Below, piece after piece: positions 18,985 to 52,685 of a stretch of DNA of 64,000 nt (the stretch's first letter is position 1; every line of letters begins with the position of its first letter). A model generated the notes under the pieces. The model was not told the DNA's origin. It did no database searches and worked only from the letters and a program-made list of their open reading frames with translations. The translations under genes and the position numbers were made by a program. Origin of the DNA: Escherichia virus TH44; the sequence record MT446415.1. One strand, written 5' to 3'.

Positions 18985-18985
18985 T

Positions 18986-19050
18986 TAAAAAGTAGTGTAC
19001 ATCAGTATGGAGTCTATGTATAATGATTCCATACTGAGTTACCAAACAGA
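18986..19050 (+). promoter_or_regulatory. T4-type early promoter cassette
   Basis: AAAAAGTAGTGTACA, 18 bp, TATAAT, then TTCCATACTGAGTTACC; ATGGA/TCCAT inverted repeat around -10. Confidence 0.6.
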
Positions 19051-19571: not shown

Positions 19572-19630
19572 ATAAAAAAGTGTACATCTCCAGTGGTTGT
19601 AGTATAATGAACCTATCAACTACTGGAGAT
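19572..19630 (+). promoter_or_regulatory. T4-type early promoter cassette
   Basis: AAAAAGTGTACA, 17 bp, TATAAT, then CTATCAACTACTGGAG. Confidence 0.6.
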
Positions 19631-19968: not shown

Positions 19969-20210
19969 AACTTTTTAAAGACATTGCAGTTGGTGAAAAA
20001 TTTGTCCTGGGTAATGGTCAACAACTGATTCGCATTTCGCCTTTAATGGATAACAGTGAACGCCCTGTGCGCACTGAAAACTGTTTGGATTATCCTTTTT
20101 ATCAGAAGCGTTTTGCAATTGAAAATAATACTGAGTGTTTCACAGTTGATGAACTGATGGAATCATCAGAAGAAGTTGACTTGTGGGATGGCGCAGTTGA
20201 TGTAGAATAG
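19965..20210 (+). CDS. hypothetical protein
   Basis: 81 aa; TAG stop is part of the next cassette. Confidence 0.4.
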   Translation: MKLFKDIAVGEKFVLGNGQQLIRISPLMDNSERPVRTENCLDYPFYQKRFAIENNTECFTVDELMESSEEVDLWDGAVDVE

Positions 20211-20270
20211 TGTACAAACTCTTGGGAGCAGAGTATAATGCTCCCAGTGGATAATAAAATTTAACTGAGG
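20208..20270 (+). promoter_or_regulatory. T4-type early promoter cassette with hairpin around -10
   Basis: TAGTGTACAAACTCTT-GGGAGCA-gagTATAAT-GCTCCC; perfect 7 bp inverted repeat. Confidence 0.65.
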
Positions 20271-20278
20271 AAATCATT

Positions 20279-20623
20279 ATGTCTAAAGTATTTTTTGGTA
20301 ATCGCAACATTATGTTCTTTAAACAGATTAGCGTATCAGAAGCATTTGATTTAAGTTATTCGGGCGGCACAAAAGCTGTTAACCTTAAAAATTTGATGTC
20401 TGCAGAATTTGCATTCTATCAGGACCCTGAAACTGGTTTCTACAAATTTATTAAGTTCCGCATGACTATGGACCGCGATTATCGTGATGTTTATTATACA
20501 AGTTATGAAAGTGTTGTGAATGCAATTCGTGAAGCTTATGGATTGGATTCGTTATCTCTTGACCGCCTGTATAATGCAAGCCTTTACACCAGCGGATTTA
20601 TTTTAGAACAGCTTCAAAAATAG
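20279..20623 (+). CDS. hypothetical protein
   Basis: 114 aa; TAG stop embedded in next cassette. Confidence 0.45.
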   Translation: MSKVFFGNRNIMFFKQISVSEAFDLSYSGGTKAVNLKNLMSAEFAFYQDPETGFYKFIKFRMTMDRDYRDVYYTSYESVVNAIREAYGLDSLSLDRLYNASLYTSGFILEQLQK

Positions 20624-20690
20624 TGTACAAACTCTTGGGGTCAGAGTATAATGACCCCACTGGAGCACAAAACTTTAACTTACTGAGGAA
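20621..20690 (+). promoter_or_regulatory. T4-type early promoter cassette with hairpin around -10
   Basis: TAGTGTACAAACTCTT-GGGGTCA-gagTATAAT-GACCCC; arms differ from the 20208 copy by two compensatory pairs. Confidence 0.65.
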
Positions 20691-20696
20691 ATTAAT

Positions 20697-21146
20697 ATGA
20701 ATACTTACATGACCCGTCGTGACGTACTGAATGCTGGCGCTACCACTGTTGCTTACATCCATAATGGTAATTATGTCGCCGGTCGCCCAACTAAAGAAGC
20801 TATCACCCAACCGGGTTTTTATTTTGTAGTTAAGGGTGAAGGTGAATCGCGTATTGTTGCGGCACGTTTTTACGTTGGTAACCAACGTTCACAACAAGGG
20901 TTTGACACTGTATTAAGTCACATCCGCAAACAGCGTTCACAACTGTCGCGCACAATGGCGAACAATGGTGTTATCTATGAAGTTCTGTTTGTTCCGGTTT
21001 CTAAAATGAAGCCTCTGACAACTGGTTATGGTAAAGGTCAAATTGCAATGGCGTTCACTCGCTCACATAGTTCTGATTGCCAGACCCTTTCAGAAATGAA
21101 TCGCATGCTTGCTGATAACTTTAAATTCATTCTGCAGAGCTATTAA
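20697..21146 (+). CDS. ndd: nucleoid disruption protein Ndd-like
   Basis: 149 aa (T4 Ndd 151); position between rIIB and stp/52; sequence resemblance from recall only. Confidence 0.45.
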
Positions 21147-21147
21147 T

Positions 21148-21321
21148 ATGAGACATTTCTTTACAATGGGTTACTTATTTGTTTTAGCACTATTTGTTAT
21201 TACAGGAGCCTTTATAGCCTTTGGCGCTCCATTTAATGATAAAGTTGCTGTTACTATGTGCTTTAGTGGCGGATTTATCTGTTTTGAACGTTTATGTAAA
21301 ATGTGTGGTATATATGAGTAA
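21148..21321 (+). CDS. small membrane protein (T4 ac position)
   Basis: 57 aa from internal ATG; hydrophobic [18 protein letters not shown]. Confidence 0.35.
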
Positions 21322-21394
21322 TTTCCATAATGAACATGTGATGCAATGGCATCGCCATAATCTGAAATTAACTGGCGTCTTTGGACGCCCTTGA
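21314..21394 (+). CDS. stp: Stp-like 26-residue peptide
   Basis: 26 codon [29 protein letters not shown], not in track; length and sequence resemble recalled T4 Stp; position upstream of 52. Confidence 0.55.
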
Positions 21395-21401
21395 GGAAAA
21401 T

Positions 21402-21560
21402 ATGATTATTCTGGCTTTTATCGAACTTATTATTGCCGTGGTTTGTTCAGTCTGCTTCTTTTTAGGAGTCTGGACTCCAAGCACATTTTTCATGGGCGCG
21501 ATGTTTATTGCATGGGTTATTTCTGGAATTGTAAGTCTGGCGCGGTATGCGAAAAAATGA
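21402..21560 (+). CDS. small membrane peptide
   Basis: 52 aa, SD GAGGAAAA; two hydrophobic segments. Confidence 0.35.
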   Translation: MIILAFIELIIAVVCSVCFFLGVWTPSTFFMGAMFIAWVISGIVSLARYAKK

Positions 21561-21697
21561 TTAAGAAAATCTTGGGCTACTCGTTAGCCCTTGCTGCCTT
21601 ATTGGTAGCGCTGTATTATGGAGTTGTATTTGCATTAGTGCAGGTTGTGCTTTTTATTTCTGATGCTATAATGGCAGTACATTCGTTAATCTGGTAA
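21557..21697 (+). CDS. small membrane peptide
   Basis: 46 aa from internal ATG of track ORF; hydrophobic LALAALLVALYYGVVFALVQVVLFI. Confidence 0.35.
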   Translation: MIKKILGYSLALAALLVALYYGVVFALVQVVLFISDAIMAVHSLIW

Positions 21698-21705
21698 GGT
21701 GATAT

Positions 21706-23085
21706 ATGTCTGACGTTTTAAGTATGATGTCCAAACAGTTCAGTGATTCCATGGGGACCCTTAACCCACGCAGTCTAAAAGACATTATTGATGTGGAAGC
21801 ATTATCATATGCTATCTACACTGTGGAAGGTCGCGCAATCCCAAACATGATTGATGGTTTTAAACCAGTTCACAGATTTGTTATGGCGAGAGCATTAGAC
21901 CTGGCACGTGGTGATAAGAATAAATTCCATAAGGTTGCATCCATCGCAGGTGGCGTAGCTGATTATGGTTATCACCATGGCGAAGCATCAGCGGAAGAAG
22001 CAACTTCTGGTCTGGTCGCAACATATAAAAATGAATACCCCATGTTTGATGGACAAGGCAACTTTGGTTCCAGAATGGTGCCAGAAGCATCATCAGCTCG
22101 TTATGTATTCGCACGGGTTTCAAAGAACTTTTATAACTTGTTTAAGGATACAGAATATGCTCCGGTCCATCCTGATGAAGAACATAAGCCTCCTGCTTTT
22201 TATCTTCCTGTTATTCCTACTGTATTACTTAACGCCACTTCTGGGATTGCTGTTGGCTTCGCTACTGATATTCTGCCTCATTCGTTCCAGGACGTCAAGG
22301 AAGCTGTTAAAGCTATCGTGGAAGGTCGGGAGCCGGTTGCTCCGAAAGTAAAATATCCAGAATTCCGCGGTAAAGTTGTTGAGCTGGAAGAGCCTGGTAA
22401 GTATGAGCTTCATGGCACGTACAAAATGACTTCCAGGACCCAAATGGAAATTACTGAAATCCCGGTCCAATGGAACCTGGAAAAGTATACAAGTAAAATC
22501 CTGGACCCGCTGGAAGAGAAAGGTTTTATCACCTGGAAAGATAACTGCGGCGAGCATGGTTTTGGGTTTAAGATTAAATTCCGCAAAGAATACAAGCTGG
22601 ATGGCACCGAAGAAGAAAATCATGAGAAAATCATGAAAGACTTTGGTCTGATTGAGAAGCTCTCCCAGAACTTAACAGTGCTTAATCACAAAGGCAAGCT
22701 GGCTGAATACACCAACACGCTTGACCTGATTCGTGATTTCGTTGATGTCCGTAAGACTTATGTTCAAGTGCGAATTGACAGTAAGATTAAAGAAACTGAA
22801 GCGGCATTTAAACTGGCCCGGGCAAAAGTCTTCTTTATTAAAGAAGTGATTGATGGTAAAGTTGTTATCCAGGGGAAACCTCGTAAGAAGTTGATTGAGG
22901 AACTCCAGGCGAGTGAAATATATGGCGATTATGCAGAGAAGTTAGTGGCGATGAACATCTACCATATGACCTCTGATGAAGCTAAGAAGCTTGCGGATGA
23001 AGCTAAGGCTAAGAAAGCTGAGCATGAGTACTGGAAGACAACTGACGTTAAAACTGAATATCTTAATGATTTGGAGGCTCTATGA
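21706..23085 (+). CDS. 52: DNA topoisomerase II medium subunit (GyrA-like)
   Basis: 459 aa; long colinear match to recalled T4 gp52 (IPNMIDGFKPV, QGNFGS, YAPVH, active-site Tyr region). Confidence 0.9.
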   Translation: MSDVLSMMSKQFSDSMGTLNPRSLKDIIDVEALSYAIYTVEGRAIPNMIDGFKPVHRFVMARALDLARGDKNKFHKVASIAGGVADYGYHHGEASAEEATSGLVATYKNEYPMFDGQGNFGSRMVPEASSARYVFARVSKNFYNLFKDTEYAPVHPDEEHKPPAFYLPVIPTVLLNATSGIAVGFATDILPHSFQDVKEAVKAIVEGREPVAPKVKYPEFRGKVVELEEPGKYELHGTYKMTSRTQMEITEIPVQWNLEKYTSKILDPLEEKGFITWKDNCGEHGFGFKIKFRKEYKLDGTEEENHEKIMKDFGLIEKLSQNLTVLNHKGKLAEYTNTLDLIRDFVDVRKTYVQVRIDSKIKETEAAFKLARAKVFFIKEVIDGKVVIQGKPRKKLIEELQASEIYGDYAEKLVAMNIYHMTSDEAKKLADEAKAKKAEHEYWKTTDVKTEYLNDLEAL

Positions 23086-23171
23086 GCATAGAAAATGAAT
23101 ACGCAGTGATTTGTGCTGCTGTAGCTGGCCTGTTGATTGCCTGGGTTATTGGCAAAGTGATTGATTCTTAA
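23082..23171 (+). CDS. small membrane peptide
   Basis: 29 aa overlapping gp52 stop (ATGA); hydrophobic; low confidence. Confidence 0.25.
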   Translation: MSIENEYAVICAAVAGLLIAWVIGKVIDS

Positions 23172-23176
23172 AAACT

Positions 23177-23204
23177 AGGACCCTTCAGGGTCCTTTTTTA
23201 TTTT
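23177..23204 (+). terminator. rho-independent terminator
   Basis: GGACCC-TTCA-GGGTCC plus TTTTTTATTTT. Confidence 0.7.
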
Positions 23205-23206
23205 AA

Positions 23207-23285
23207 AAAAGTAGTGTACAATCCCCTTGTCTTAGGACATAATGATTCCATACTGAGTTACACAATGAATCACAAAAACTTTGGA
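23207..23285 (+). promoter_or_regulatory. T4-type early promoter cassette
   Basis: AAAAAAGTAGTGTACAA, 18 bp, CATAAT, GATTCCATACTGAGTTACAC. Confidence 0.6.
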
Positions 23286-23292
23286 GAATAAA

Positions 23293-23508
23293 ATGTTTAC
23301 TGCACAACAGAATGAAGGTCAAGAATACATCAACGCTAAATTCAAATCTAACAAAGAAGCTTGCTATTACTACTTTGATATGTTCAAACTGGCGAATTCT
23401 AAAGAAGAACGTAAACAAGCGATTGATGTGATTGTTTCTACTTCCCATATGAAACGTACTGTAGTACAATCATATGCATCAAATTACATGAAATCTATTA
23501 AGGGATAA
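23293..23508 (+). CDS. hypothetical protein
   Basis: 71 aa from ATG with SD GGAGA (track start TTG). Confidence 0.45.
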   Translation: MFTAQQNEGQEYINAKFKSNKEACYYYFDMFKLANSKEERKQAIDVIVSTSHMKRTVVQSYASNYMKSIKG

Positions 23509-23510
23509 TT

Positions 23511-24119
23511 GTGAACAAGTTAAATTATATCGTTAAATGCTCCCAGAACGCGCTGCATGAGACTGATGTTAATGCTCTGGTGTTTGTATACAAAAACAAC
23601 TTCGTGAGTCCAGAGGTTGTTTTAGACCAGCAGAATACATCAATTGATAGTGTGCAGACATTGTTGAATAACAACTATGTTGAAGCTTCTGGTGATGGTT
23701 TGATGGTTACAGAAAAGGGTGTTGACCTTATTCTGGATGCAGCTGAACTTTGGGCGAATGAAAATAATCCTGACCTTCTGGAAGTGAAGAAGACAAGAAC
23801 AAAACGCGGTGTGACTGATGAAATGGAAGCGACTGCAGAATATATCAAAGAGCAATTGTTGTCTATTGGTATTGACTTTAAGAGCATTTCAGAAGACCGC
23901 AGCAATCTGATTGTGAAGTTCAAGCGTGTCAAGACATTAAAACAGATTGATGTTCGTCGTGATGGTCAGATTCGCGTACATGCGTATAATACTGAACAAA
24001 AGATAGTAAAACAGTTTACAGACGTGGGATTTAGCGTTAAAGTAGGTGGATTGAATACCTACATTGACAACGTTATGTCAACTGAAAACATTCAACATGT
24101 TATTAACATCTTAAAGTGA
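23511..24119 (+). CDS. motA: MotA middle-transcription activator
   Basis: 202 aa, GTG start with SD; colinear with recalled T4 MotA (KDNF, SGDGL, KQFTDVGFS). Confidence 0.8.
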   Translation: MNKLNYIVKCSQNALHETDVNALVFVYKNNFVSPEVVLDQQNTSIDSVQTLLNNNYVEASGDGLMVTEKGVDLILDAAELWANENNPDLLEVKKTRTKRGVTDEMEATAEYIKEQLLSIGIDFKSISEDRSNLIVKFKRVKTLKQIDVRRDGQIRVHAYNTEQKIVKQFTDVGFSVKVGGLNTYIDNVMSTENIQHVINILK

Positions 24120-44342: not shown

Positions 44343-46598
44343 ATGCAAGTACAAAAAAGTAGTGGTGTATCCCAAGATTTTGATGGCCAGAAAATTATTA
44401 AAGTTCTTTCTTGGTCATGTGAAGGAACCAATATCGACCCATACGAATTATACGAAACAATCAAACCACATCTGCGCGATGGTATGACTACTCGCGATAT
44501 TCAGACGGTTATCATCAAAGTGTCTGCTGGGCTTATCTCGGTTGAAGAACCAGATTACCAATACGTTGCAGCGAAGGCTACGATGTTTGCTCTGCGTAAA
44601 GATGTTTATGGACAATTTGAGCCGCGTTCTTTTATTGACCAGATTTCTTATTGTGTTAATGAAGGCAAATATGACCCGGAGCTGTTGTCAAGCTACTCCG
44701 CCGAAGAGATTACTTACCTGGAATCTCGCATCAAACACGAACGTGATTTTGACCTGACTTATGCGGGCGCGATGCAACTTAAAGAGAAATACCTGGTTAA
44801 AGATAAAACCACTGGTAAAATCTACGAGACTCCGCAATTCGCTATCATGGCTATCGGCATGGCACTGCACCAGGATGAACCAACGGACCGTCTGAAGCAC
44901 GTTTGTCGTTTTTATGATGCAGTATCCACCCGACAGGTTTCGTTGCCCACACCTATCATGGCGGGCGCCAGAACACCTACCAGGCAGTTCAGTTCCTGTG
45001 TGGTTATCGAAGCGGCTGACTCCCTGAAGTCAATTAATAAGACTGCTAATTCAATCATCGAATATATCAGTAAGCGTGCAGGTATCGGTATCAACGTTGG
45101 CATGATTCGTGCCGAAGGTTCGAAAATCGGTATGGGCGAAGTCAAGCATACTGGTGTTATTCCGTTCTGGAAACATTTCCAAACGGCTGTTAAATCATGT
45201 TCACAAGGTGGAATCCGTGGCGGCGCTGCTACTGCTTATTATCCTATTTGGCATTTGGAAGTTGAAAATTTACTCGTTCTGAAGAACAACAAGGGCGTTG
45301 AAGAAAACCGCATCAGACATATGGACTATGGCGTCCAGCTGAATAACCTGATGATGGAGCGACTGGCTAAGAATGATTACATTACTCTGTTTAGTCCGCA
45401 CGAAGCTGGCGGTGAATTGTATTATTCATATTTTGATAACCCGGATAAATTCCGCGAGTTATATGAAGCTTTAGAAAAAGACCCGACGGTTCGTAAGAAG
45501 CGCATCAAAGCAAAAGATGTATTCGAATTATTCATGACCGAACGTTCCGGGACAGCTAGGGTTTATCCACAGTTCGTTGATAACGTGAATGACTACACTC
45601 CGTTCATCCGTGATAAGGCTCCGATTCGTCAATCAAACCTTTGCTGCGAAATTGCAATCCCGACTACTGATGTGAACAGCGAAGATGCTGAAATCGGATT
45701 GTGCACATTGTCTGCATTTGTTCTGGATAGTTTTGACTGGCAGGACCAAGATAAAATTAACGAGCTGGCCGAAGTACAAGTTCGTGCTCTTGATAATCTG
45801 TTGGACTACCAGGGTTATCCGGTTAAAGAAGCTCTGAAAGCCAAAAAACGGCGCAACCTGGGTGTTGGGGTTACTAACTATGCTGCATGGTTGGCAAGCA
45901 ATTTCGCTTCCTACGCTGATGCAAACGATTTAACGCATGAACTGTTTGAGAGATTACAATATGGCCTTATCCGTGCATCAATCAAGCTCGCCAAAGAAAA
46001 AGGACCTTGCGAATATTATTCAGACACTCGTTGGGCTCGAGGCGAACTACCTATCGACTGGTACAATAAAAAGATTGACCAAATCGCAGCTCCAAACTAC
46101 GTTTGTGACTGGGCGCAGTTGCGGGAAGACCTGGTTGAATATGGCATCCGTAATAGCACATTATCAGCACTTATGCCTTGTGAGTCATCTTCCCAAGTTT
46201 CTAACAGTACAAACGGTATCGAACCTCCGCGTGGACCAGTCTCTATTAAAGAGTCAAAAGAGGGTTCCTTTAATCAAGTCGTGCCCAATATTGAGCACAA
46301 TAAAGGATTGTACGATTACGCATGGGTGCTAGCTAAGCAAGGTAACAAACCTTATCTGACACAAGTCGCGATTATGTTGAAATGGATTTGTCAGTCAGCA
46401 TCAGCCAATACATATTATGACCCGCAGAATTATCCGAAAGGAAAAGTTCCGATGTCAGTTATGCTTGACGACCTGATGTACTTCTGGTATTTTGGTGGAA
46501 AAAACCTTTATTATCATAACACTAGAGATGGTTCCGGAATAGACGATTACGAAATCGAAGCTCCTAAAGCAGAAGACTGCTCCGCCTGTAAACTTTGA
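44343..46598 (+). CDS. nrdA: ribonucleotide reductase large subunit
   Basis: 751 aa; ATP-cone N-terminus, active-site NLCCEI and C-terminal CSACKL. Confidence 0.9.
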   Translation: MQVQKSSGVSQDFDGQKIIKVLSWSCEGTNIDPYELYETIKPHLRDGMTTRDIQTVIIKVSAGLISVEEPDYQYVAAKATMFALRKDVYGQFEPRSFIDQISYCVNEGKYDPELLSSYSAEEITYLESRIKHERDFDLTYAGAMQLKEKYLVKDKTTGKIYETPQFAIMAIGMALHQDEPTDRLKHVCRFYDAVSTRQVSLPTPIMAGARTPTRQFSSCVVIEAADSLKSINKTANSIIEYISKRAGIGINVGMIRAEGSKIGMGEVKHTGVIPFWKHFQTAVKSCSQGGIRGGAATAYYPIWHLEVENLLVLKNNKGVEENRIRHMDYGVQLNNLMMERLAKNDYITLFSPHEAGGELYYSYFDNPDKFRELYEALEKDPTVRKKRIKAKDVFELFMTERSGTARVYPQFVDNVNDYTPFIRDKAPIRQSNLCCEIAIPTTDVNSEDAEIGLCTLSAFVLDSFDWQDQDKINELAEVQVRALDNLLDYQGYPVKEALKAKKRRNLGVGVTNYAAWLASNFASYADANDLTHELFERLQYGLIRASIKLAKEKGPCEYYSDTRWARGELPIDWYNKKIDQIAAPNYVCDWAQLREDLVEYGIRNSTLSALMPCESSSQVSNSTNGIEPPRGPVSIKESKEGSFNQVVPNIEHNKGLYDYAWVLAKQGNKPYLTQVAIMLKWICQSASANTYYDPQNYPKGKVPMSVMLDDLMYFWYFGGKNLYYHNTRDGSGIDDYEIEAPKAEDCSACKL

Positions 46599-47841: not shown

Positions 47842-48252
47842 ATGAAACAAATCGCTGATGAATACAGTTTTATAAAATACGCGGAGTTGGAGTTAGTCGA
47901 TGGTAAAATCCCTATCCTTACTCTCGCAAACAAGAAAAATGTTATCTATGCTATTTCAGTTGATGATGAACTAGTGTATATTGGTAAGACGAACAACCTT
48001 AAGAAGCGTATCAACTATTACCGGACTGCAATTAACCGAATCGAACAGACGAGTGATTCAAACAAATCCCGGATGATACATGAAGCTTTACAAGAAGGCA
48101 AAAAGGTGGTATTCTATGCACGGCAATGTTTCAATCTGTCAATGACCAATGAACTTGGCACAATGTCAGTCGAAACGATGTCTCTGGAAGAGCCGATGTT
48201 CATCAAGCTTTTTAATCCCCCGTGGAATTACCAACATAAGGTGAAGAAATGA
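47842..48252 (+). CDS. denA: endonuclease II (GIY-YIG family)
   Basis: 136 aa from ATG (identical to T4 EndoII length); VIYAI...LVYIGKT GIY-YIG-like motif; position between nrdB and rnlA. Confidence 0.6.
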   Translation: MKQIADEYSFIKYAELELVDGKIPILTLANKKNVIYAISVDDELVYIGKTNNLKKRINYYRTAINRIEQTSDSNKSRMIHEALQEGKKVVFYARQCFNLSMTNELGTMSVETMSLEEPMFIKLFNPPWNYQHKVKK

Positions 48253-49385
48253 TTGAATTATATGATAACTTAATGAAGCTTTGCGCCGAATCCGATAAAG
48301 GTAAGTTTTTCTATACGGATTTTGTTTCTCCATTTGAAACTAAGTTCCGCATCTTTAGCTATAACTATGCTTCCTATAGTGATTGGCTTCTTGATGATGC
48401 GCTGGAGTGTCGTGGTATTATGTTTGAAATGGATGCTAATGGCCCAGTTCGCATTGCCGCCCGTCCTATGGAAAAATTCTTTAATCTGGGTGAGAATCCA
48501 ATGACCATGGACCTTAACCTTGATGAGGTTGTCCTGGTTACTGCAAAAGCTGATGGTAGTTTGGTTTCTACTTATATGGACCAGACTAATATCGCCTTTA
48601 AATCCAAAGGGTCAATCAAAAGCTCCCAGGCTGCTGAATCCTTGCAGGTGTTTAAACAAGAGCATCGCAGTGCATTCAGGGCTCGCGTAACTGAAATCAC
48701 TGAAGCTGGTTATACATGCAATATGGAATATGTTGCACCAACCAACCGCATTGTTTTGCCTTACCAGGAACGTGACCTGATTTTACTGAACGTTCGTCAT
48801 AATGAAACGGGCGAATATATTCCTTATCAGGAACTGTTCAAAGATGCTGCACTCCGTCCTTTCCTGGTTGAAGCATATGACCCGGCGAGCATTGAGAATG
48901 TTCGTGGTATGAAAGAGATTGAAGGCTTCGTCTACGAGTTGGCAAGTGGTCAGAAGTTCAAGATGAAAACAGAATGGTATTGTGCTCTGCATCATACTAA
49001 AGACTCCATTAATAATAATGAGCGACTGTTTGAAGTTGTTGTTGCTGGCGGGGCAGATGATGTTATTGCCATGTTTACTGGCGATAATTATGCTCGCGAA
49101 AAAGTTAATGCCTTTACTGTAACGCATCTGGATTATCTGTCCAATACGCTGGGATTGTTGCTTGATGCTCAGAAACAATTGGCAGGAAAAGACCGTCGCG
49201 AGTTTGCGATTAAAGGTCAAGAGTTGTGCAAACCATACCCGGGATTGTTCTCCGTATTAATGAACACCTATCAACGCCCACAGGAAACTGAACAAACGAT
49301 TGCTCAAATCAATAAAGTTTTCCTTAAAAATCATAAACTTTACATTCCGTCGGACTACCAAGCGGAAGTAATCCTTCCTGAATAA
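48249..49385 (+). CDS. rnlA: RNA ligase 1
   Basis: 378 aa (T4 374); nucleotidyltransferase motif I lysine in TAKADGSL. Confidence 0.8.
   Translation: MIELYDNLMKLCAESDKGKFFYTDFVSPFETKFRIFSYNYASYSDWLLDDALECRGIMFEMDANGPVRIAARPMEKFFNLGENPMTMDLNLDEVVLVTAKADGSLVSTYMDQTNIAFKSKGSIKSSQAAESLQVFKQEHRSAFRARVTEITEAGYTCNMEYVAPTNRIVLPYQERDLILLNVRHNETGEYIPYQELFKDAALRPFLVEAYDPASIENVRGMKEIEGFVYELASGQKFKMKTEWYCALHHTKDSINNNERLFEVVVAGGADDVIAMFTGDNYAREKVNAFTVTHLDYLSNTLGLLLDAQKQLAGKDRREFAIKGQELCKPYPGLFSVLMNTYQRPQETEQTIAQINKVFLKNHKLYIPSDYQAEVILPE

Positions 49386-51466: not shown

Positions 51467-52684
<1,218 letters not shown>

Positions 52685-52685
<1 letters not shown>

Follow-up and report, generated by a model that had tools for sequence, protein, structure and literature searches.

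The locus

The window, a stretch of 64,000 nucleotides from Escherichia virus TH44 (MT446415.1), carries between 20697 and 23085 on the + strand the genes ndd, orfA, stp, the slot ORF, 52.1, and 52, in this order (Table 1). The T4-type arrangement ndd-stp-small membrane gene-52.1-52 is common to the window, T4, VR25, and UPEC01, and the additional orfA is found between ndd and stp in the window, UPEC01, UPEC07, TH40, JS98, and IME341. A megablast search with 20600-22300 returned 123 phage records, the best being those of the Gaprivervirus phages TH40, TH22, UPEC07, UPEC01, VR7, VR20, and VR25, at 94-97% identity; these matches place the window phage among the T4-type myoviruses of the VR7/SP18 group.

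A sequence-only reading had singled out a 26-codon ORF at this locus together with three flanking ORFs of 46-57 aa with hydrophobic helices. Translation of the window reproduced the coordinates and the peptide letters of the former exactly, as a free-standing + strand ORF that opens with an ATG at 21314 and closes with a TGA at 21392-21394. The flanking ORFs are there as well: they are orfA, the slot ORF, and 52.1, whose products have GRAVY values of 1.07-1.78 and contain one, two, and one-to-two Kyte-Doolittle segments of transmembrane length, respectively. All four small ORFs are protein coding and evolve under frame-specific purifying selection, with pN/pS of 0.15-0.25 in their own frames and 0.7-3.6 in the other frames, where the pairwise comparisons are non-independent and the control is the frame-to-frame contrast on the same alignment. 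For stp, the values are 0.17 in its own frame versus 1.57 and 1.95 in the others (10 distinct sequences), and for orfA 0.25 versus 0.78 and 1.03; own-frame values are 0.20 for the slot ORF and 0.15 for 52.1.

Table 1. Features of the stp locus and the tRNA repair genes of the window
Feature	Position	Strand	Description	Evidence
Promoter-like element	20613..20659	+	Stem-loop around -10 hexamer (PeSL-type early promoter cassette), just 5' of ndd
ndd	20697..21146	+	Nucleoid disruption protein, 149 aa	PF06591 230.5 bits; PHROG 1102; annotated ndd in relatives
orfA	21148..21321	+	57 aa, one transmembrane helix, Cys-rich tail	PHROG 5941
stp	21314..21394	+	26-aa Stp peptide	PF08133; PHROG 6763; T4 Stp identity; RefSeq YP_009210023.1; pN/pS
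Hairpin GGCGTC-TTTG-GACGCC	21374..21389	+	6 bp, within last stp codons, 6 nt 5' of the GAGGA Shine-Dalgarno sequence of the next gene
Slot ORF	21402..21560	+	52 aa, two transmembrane helices, ac position	PHROG 9347
52.1	21557..21697	+	46 aa, conserved membrane protein	Pfam DUF7396; PHROG 3595
52	21706..23085	+	DNA topoisomerase II medium subunit, 459 aa	Syntenic gp52/topoisomerase II annotation in VR25, UPEC01, T4
Terminator-like hairpin + T-run	23177..23194	+	3' of gene 52	7-bp stem, 5 GC pairs, TTTTTATTTT tail
rnlA (gene 63)	48249..49385	+	RNA ligase 1, seals PrrC-cut tRNA-Lys	T4_Rnl1_C 142 bits; RNA_lig_T4_1 84 bits; PHROG 562 E=1e-137
pseT	51780..52685	+	Polynucleotide 5'-kinase/3'-phosphatase, heals PrrC-made ends	HAD_PNKP 190 bits; AAA_33 76 bits; PHROG 505 E=3e-122

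The block is bracketed by two candidate transcription signals. Upstream of ndd, TGTACA-N17-TATAAT at 20624-20652 reaches a consensus score of 10/12. It belongs to a family of promoter-like repeats, located at 18985, 20206, 20613, and 23204, that resemble the PeSL cassettes described for T4-type phages (PMC2839356, PMC4122927). Judging by consensus match, the element at 20613 is probably the start of an ndd-to-52 transcription unit and the hairpin 3' of gene 52 probably its end. A search of both strands of 20000-23600 against Rfam gave no family at gathering score.

A 26-residue Stp peptide

The 26-codon ORF had been likened to the T4 Stp peptide, and an alignment to authentic Stp had been proposed as a check. 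The likeness held up: the peptide shares 20/26 residues with T4 Stp (NP_049878), and BLASTP aligns the two over 25 residues with 20/25 identities (E=4e-15). The two agree at residues 1-11 and throughout the GVFGR motif, and identity over the N-proximal 18 residues is 15/18; relative to T4 Stp, the substitutions are F12W, Y13H, N15H, T19L, K20T, and Q26P. Profile searches concur, with PF08133 (Nuclease_act; anticodon nuclease activator family) matching at 55.3 bits (E=4.4e-15, profile positions 1-25/26; curated gathering cut-off, 25 bits) and PHROG 6763 ("activator of host PrrC lysyl-tRNA endonuclease") at E=2e-19. When T4 Stp was used as a query on the 64-kb window, it found one site, 21314-21394, at E=1.4e-11, with the runner-up at E=0.36. 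RefSeq protein YP_009210023.1 of VR25, which carries the same functional name as the PHROG, is identical in sequence to the window peptide. A sequence search of the PDB returned no structure for Stp or its relatives, its only hits being fortuitous ones to complex I subunit B15 (E~0.3), and none of the NCBIfam models matched any of the four small proteins encoded by 21148-21697. The ORF thus belongs to the Stp family by all criteria open to in silico testing, and we regard its membership as established at the level of sequence. The ORF is an already known gene at its known place, and singling it out was a correct observation but not a new one.

Start and translation of stp

The stp ATG lies 5 nt ahead of the orfA stop codon, so that the two genes overlap (ATGAGTAA). 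No arrangement places the start more than 8 nt from the upstream stop, the junctions reading TAATG in T4, TAATATG in VR25, and ATGAGTAA in the window. The Shine-Dalgarno (SD) sequence 5' of stp is weak (GTGGT). In view of the weak SD, the closeness of start and stop suggests termination-reinitiation coupling, on which translation of stp would then depend.

A rule that takes the first ATG, GTG, or TTG after a stop assigns 70, 57, 59, and 84 aa to the four small-ORF frames. As an alternative, the real gene could be an N-terminally extended ORF of 52-57 aa in the stp frame, encoding a hydrophobic leader fused to Stp rather than a free 26-mer. The stp frame of the window is indeed open upstream to 21221, where a TTG start would yield 57 aa, and UPEC01 and UPEC07 are annotated with a 52-aa "hypothetical protein" in which a leader is followed by MSNFHNEH…. 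Where the orfA and stp frames overlap, however, selection acts on orfA: across six sequences, pN/pS is 0.20 when read in the frame of orfA and 1.18 when read in that of stp. The extension is moreover interrupted by stop codons in the IME341-like sequence L012 and in JS98, it does not exist in VR25 and T4, in which stp lies directly 3' of ndd, and the Pfam and PHROG profiles of Stp are 26 positions long and align from residue 1. We consider an extended product very improbable, and on the comparative grounds of overlap pN/pS, stop codons in relatives, and 26-position profiles we treat it as refuted. The preferred product, a free 26-mer, has a hydrophilic, basic, and histidine-rich sequence.

A hairpin in the last codons

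The 3' end of stp can form a hairpin of -10.8 kcal/mol (z=-1.9 in a 51-nt context) that is kept in all T4-like relatives, with a TTTG loop in the window and TTCG in T4; three changes are seen in its stem, and all of them yield G·U pairs. Since this conserved UUCG/UUUG-loop hairpin spans the last six stp codons just 5' of the SD of the next gene, conservation at 21314-21394 could conceivably reflect an RNA or regulatory element, namely, the hairpin and the ribosome-binding context of the following gene, instead of a peptide. Yet the hairpin takes up only 16/81 nt of stp, and changes in the N-terminal codons are strongly biased toward synonymous ones. Stp copies of Kagunavirus siphophages encode the same peptide, including the GVFG residues, from other codons and lack the hairpin, and T4 genetics and work with synthetic peptides have established that the activity resides in the peptide (PMC3014915). 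The probability that an RNA element, and not the Stp peptide, accounts for the conservation is practically negligible.

Neighboring membrane-protein genes

The three neighbors of stp are genuine, ordinary small membrane-protein genes of known families, set in a variable early block. orfA, whose ATG lies 1 nt past the ndd stop (TAATATG), matches PHROG 5941 at E=2.1e-23 over positions 1-57/57, and tblastn finds it in 219 phage records, chiefly of Klebsiella T4-like phages, and invariably adjoining ndd. Its single hydrophobic segment (KD19, approximately residues 7-25) is followed by a conserved Cys-rich tail. We considered an insertion of orfA between short direct repeats, ATATGAG being present at both junctions, and rejected it because the junctions in L012 differ (orfA starts with ATGAAA, and GTGTGT precedes stp) and because the family is widespread beside ndd in Klebsiella T4-like phages.

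A strong SD (GAGGAAAATATG) precedes the slot ORF, and the ORF ends in a stop that overlaps the start of 52.1 (ATGA). It matches PHROG 9347 at E=5.5e-20 (residues 1-51 on a 53-position profile), as does VR25 gp281, and it is present in 87 phage records. In T4, the same slot between stp and 52.1 is occupied by Ac, an acridine sensitivity/resistance protein that is, like the slot ORF product, a small membrane protein of similar size. The slot ORF could therefore have been a divergent ac allele, but this interpretation was rejected: the Ac proteins of T4, UPEC01, and JS98 all belong to PHROG 2501, BLASTP between the slot ORF product and T4 Ac revealed no significant similarity (E=0.099 over 16 residues), and JS98 has an ac homolog and a PHROG 9347 gene in tandem, which makes them distinct genes. 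A search for an Ac homolog across the 64-kb window found none. Across T4, VR25, UPEC01, and the window, the stp-52.1 segment has invariant borders, TGAGGAAAATATGA and AATGATTAAGA, and variable content, which is the behavior of a cassette slot. The product of 52.1 is nearly identical to T4 gp52.1 and matches DUF7396 at 71.8 bits (cut-off, 27) over positions 1-46/46.

The window and T4 are alike in the length of Stp, in its position between ndd and 52.1-52, in a start coupled in position to the upstream stop, in a 3' hairpin that precedes an SD, and in the carriage of pseT and rnlA; they differ in orfA, which both T4 and VR25 lack, in the identity of the gene after stp, and in the hairpin loop. 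The Gaprivervirus phage VR25 and the Dhakavirus phage JS98 (NC_010105) have Stp peptides 100% identical to that of the window, each named "activator of host PrrC lysyl-tRNA endonuclease", and only the neighbors differ: VR25 has no orfA, and JS98 combines orfA with the tandem described above.

Distribution and annotation

Stp-like coding sequences were found by tblastn in 740 phage records, and the exact window allele is present in 37 records of Gaprivervirus and Dhakavirus phages. Among these 37, 29 are annotated: two name Stp (VR25 and JS98), six list a hypothetical protein, and 21 leave this 81-nt gene without a CDS. Two records outside these 21 fuse a spurious N-terminal extension to it. 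That stp goes unannotated so often indicates that length-thresholded ORF tracks systematically hide it, which is a matter of annotation completeness and not of discovery.

Stp-like peptides also occur in siphophages, whose backbones are unrelated to that of the window phage and whose copies are mostly unannotated. Phage Rtp (rtp6, annotated as Stp-like in AM156909.1), Kagunavirus K1ind2, and Skatevirus Skate encode peptides of 25-30 residues that share with the window the core SN[FWH]HN[EG]H[VI]MQ[FWL][YH]R..[LIF]K. Those of Kagunavirus are close to T4 Stp and end in [T/A]KGVFGK, whereas a 26-27-aa type, MSNWHNEHIMQWYRRRIK…, is found in Skatevirus, Deseoctovirus, and many contigs of ~45 kb, again mostly without annotation. 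Skate-type copies, unlike the window stp, have a strong SD of their own (AGGAG) and a different C terminus (…IKAITNSYEVQ). Viral contigs were scanned for stp with a degenerate DNA pattern that fixes residues 1-11, so that the invariance of the N terminus in the scanned set is by construction. A tblastn search for Pnk and Rnl1 beside the siphophage stp-like genes gave no matches in the limited flanking sequence.

Proposed mechanism

In T4, Stp activates the latent PrrC tRNA-Lys anticodon nuclease (PMC3014915, PMC1484252) and is both necessary and sufficient for this step; its anti-restriction effect covers the type IC enzymes EcoprrI and EcoR124I but not type IA enzymes, and modification is left unaffected (PMC3014915, PMC12707154). 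These reports agree with the function given in the sequence-only reading, inhibition of a type Ic restriction enzyme with PrrC triggering as its consequence, which for the window peptide would hold by analogy with T4. Stp, Pnk, and Rnl1 of T4 are products of delayed-early genes (PMC3014915), and the molecular mechanism of inhibition by T4 Stp is still described as unknown (PMC12707154).

We posit that an early message running through ndd, orfA, stp, the slot ORF, 52.1, and 52 includes stp and that its product is made upon reinitiation behind orfA. By analogy with T4, the free peptide would bind to a host type IC restriction-modification complex of the EcoprrI/EcoR124I type and block restriction but not modification; in hosts with prrC in the type IC locus, the same binding would free latent PrrC, leading to cleavage of tRNA-Lys, which the phage Pnk and Rnl1 could then mend. 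The window encodes both repair enzymes beside Stp and thus possesses a complete trigger-and-repair kit. T-even DNA is normally shielded from type I restriction by base modification, a circumstance that counts against a clear benefit of Stp. Overall, we hold it highly probable that the ORF represents stp in a Gaprivervirus-like T4-type phage and that it works by the T4-Stp-like mechanism proposed here.

A lineage-specific allele

Three of the six substitutions fall in the region to which function has been mapped. According to a review, here a second-hand source of residue-level data (PMC3014915), the function of T4 Stp resides in the N-proximal 18 residues, which are almost invariant across nine T4-type phages; suppressor mutations that abolish stp function cluster at residues 4-14, and deletion of the last 8 codons impairs it only moderately. 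W12 and H13 lie within this cluster and H15 within the near-invariant region, so that activity could be altered or lost. The allele (W12/H13/H15 with L19/T20/P26) is moreover fixed and identical in 37 public records of the two genera, which marks it as a stable lineage-specific variant and not as drift. The window peptide might accordingly (i) act on another set of type I targets or (ii) counter restriction without triggering PrrC.

Several observations speak against such a change of function. The residues that T4 Stp uses to activate PrrC are mostly the same as those used to inhibit EcoprrI (PMC3014915), so that the two functions are unlikely to come apart. F to W, Y to H, and N to H are conservative changes, and each recurs in natural Stp-like peptides, W12 and H13 in siphophage contigs (MQWHRRR) and H15 in phage Rtp (YRHNLK); we argue from this recurrence that they are tolerated, which does not imply equal specificity. 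Finally, Pnk and Rnl1 are kept, as would be expected if PrrC were still triggered, although they could be retained for other reasons. We therefore think it unlikely that the allele has acquired a different target set or lost PrrC triggering and favor a peptide that would function as T4 Stp does.

Conclusions

Stp is the textbook example of how a host defense, PrrC, uses a phage anti-restriction factor as an alarm, and the window carries Stp, Pnk, and Rnl1 as the standard kit. The single point of mild interest is what the substitutions at residues 12, 13, and 15 might mean for function. If the allele blocked restriction while PrrC stayed silent, it would represent a natural escape from a "guard"-type defense; under this reading, or that of a variant tuned to other type I enzymes, the Stp-like peptides of unrelated siphophages would be more points in the same arms race.

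A variable slot beside stp

Downstream of stp, the gene for the 26-residue Stp peptide, the segment extending to 52.1 is a cassette slot of variable content. Its borders, TGAGGAAAATATGA … AATGATTAAGA, are invariant among the window and comparison loci L001, L002 (UPEC01), L003 and L042 (JS98), and what lies between them is an Ac-type gene (PHROG 2501) in T4 and UPEC01, a PHROG 9347-type gene in the window, VR25 and UPEC07, and a tandem of the PHROG 2501 and PHROG 9347 types in JS98; no Ac homologue is present anywhere in the window. At the upstream edge of the slot, the final codons of stp form a hairpin that every T4-like relative retains; in T4 its loop is a C(UUCG)G tetraloop. All three changes observed in the stem convert pairs to G·U, the structure is modestly stable (-10.8 kcal/mol, z=-1.9), and the GAGGA Shine-Dalgarno sequence of the next gene starts 6 nt past the hairpin. 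On the far side of the slot, 52.1 of Escherichia virus TH40 (L005, MT446411.1, an UNVERIFIED record) loses its frame after 14 residues (MIKKILGYSLALAACSDAMASS); because the TH40 match to this region is about 255 nt longer than the query, an internal insertion or an assembly problem is suggested.

On a larger scale, small-gene modules of the window are bounded by a repeated element of ~47-57 nt, AATAGTGTACA…GGGGTCAGAGTATAATGACCCC, similar to the PeSL cassettes described in T4-type phages (PMC2839356, PMC4122927). It is promoter-like, with the arrangement TGTACA-N17-TATAAT and an inverted repeat surrounding the -10 hexamer.

Coordinates of features at the stp locus and of Stp-related frames elsewhere
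Feature	Record	Position	Remark
Cassette slot	window	21395-21560	stp to 52.1
Hairpin	window	21374-21389	GGCGTC-TTTG-GACGCC
Repeat element	window	18985-19031, 20206-20262, 20613-20675, 23204-23250; also about 19581-19613	
52-aa frame	UPEC01 (L002)	2137-2295	QQG30927.1, "hypothetical protein"
52-aa frame	UPEC07 (L004)	937-1095	QUL77466.1, "hypothetical protein"
Stop-less Stp frame	L027, IMGVR_UViG_3300023038_000081	from 226	
Stp	Kagunavirus K1ind2 GU196280.1 (L048)	601-675	nearly T4-identical
rtp6	phage Rtp (L047)	583-675	30 aa, already annotated Stp-like
Stp-like frame	Salmonella phage Skate NC_054639.1 (L006)	1501-1584 (record 45463-45546)	unannotated

The orfA gene and the annotation of Stp

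The 52-aa proteins annotated in UPEC01 and UPEC07 are Stp with a spurious N-terminal extension, which overlaps the true gene for the membrane protein orfA, itself unannotated in both public records. The orfA family (PHROG 5941), represented in the window at 21148-21321, occurs much more often in Klebsiella T4-like phages, the source of 161 of its 219 records, where it adjoins ndd and most genomes have no Stp match. Its C-terminal tail carries four conserved cysteines (C-x6-C-x4-C-x2-C) that may bind metal or form disulfides. In a single metagenomic contig the Stp frame lacks a stop codon and continues into the downstream ORF to give 74 aa, a product explained either by a natural fusion of Stp or by an error in sequencing.

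Stp beyond the T4-like phages

Unannotated Stp-like ORFs of 26-27 aa, exemplified by that of Skate (MSNWHNEHIMQWYRRRIKVITNSCEVQ), occupy a gap between annotated genes in ~45-kb siphophages, namely Skatevirus, Deseoctovirus and metagenomic contigs (also L007, L009, L011, L014-L018, L020, L022, L024, L026, L029-L031, L033, L037, L038, L040, L043, L044 and L046). They follow a strong Shine-Dalgarno sequence, AGGAG, and match the Stp profile PHROG 6763 at E=1e-12; their first 14 residues closely match T4 Stp, whereas the C-terminus is unrelated. Kagunavirus siphophages encode a nearly T4-identical peptide ending [T/A]KGVFGK, in most cases without annotation. The codons used are different and the 3' hairpin is absent; such near-identical copies also occur at L028, L034, L035 and L039. 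In phage Rtp, a putative polynucleotide kinase gene lies upstream of rtp6, two genes away. Together, the near-T4 peptide of Kagunavirus and the Stp-like rtp6 suggest that stp has spread horizontally across unrelated phage groups.
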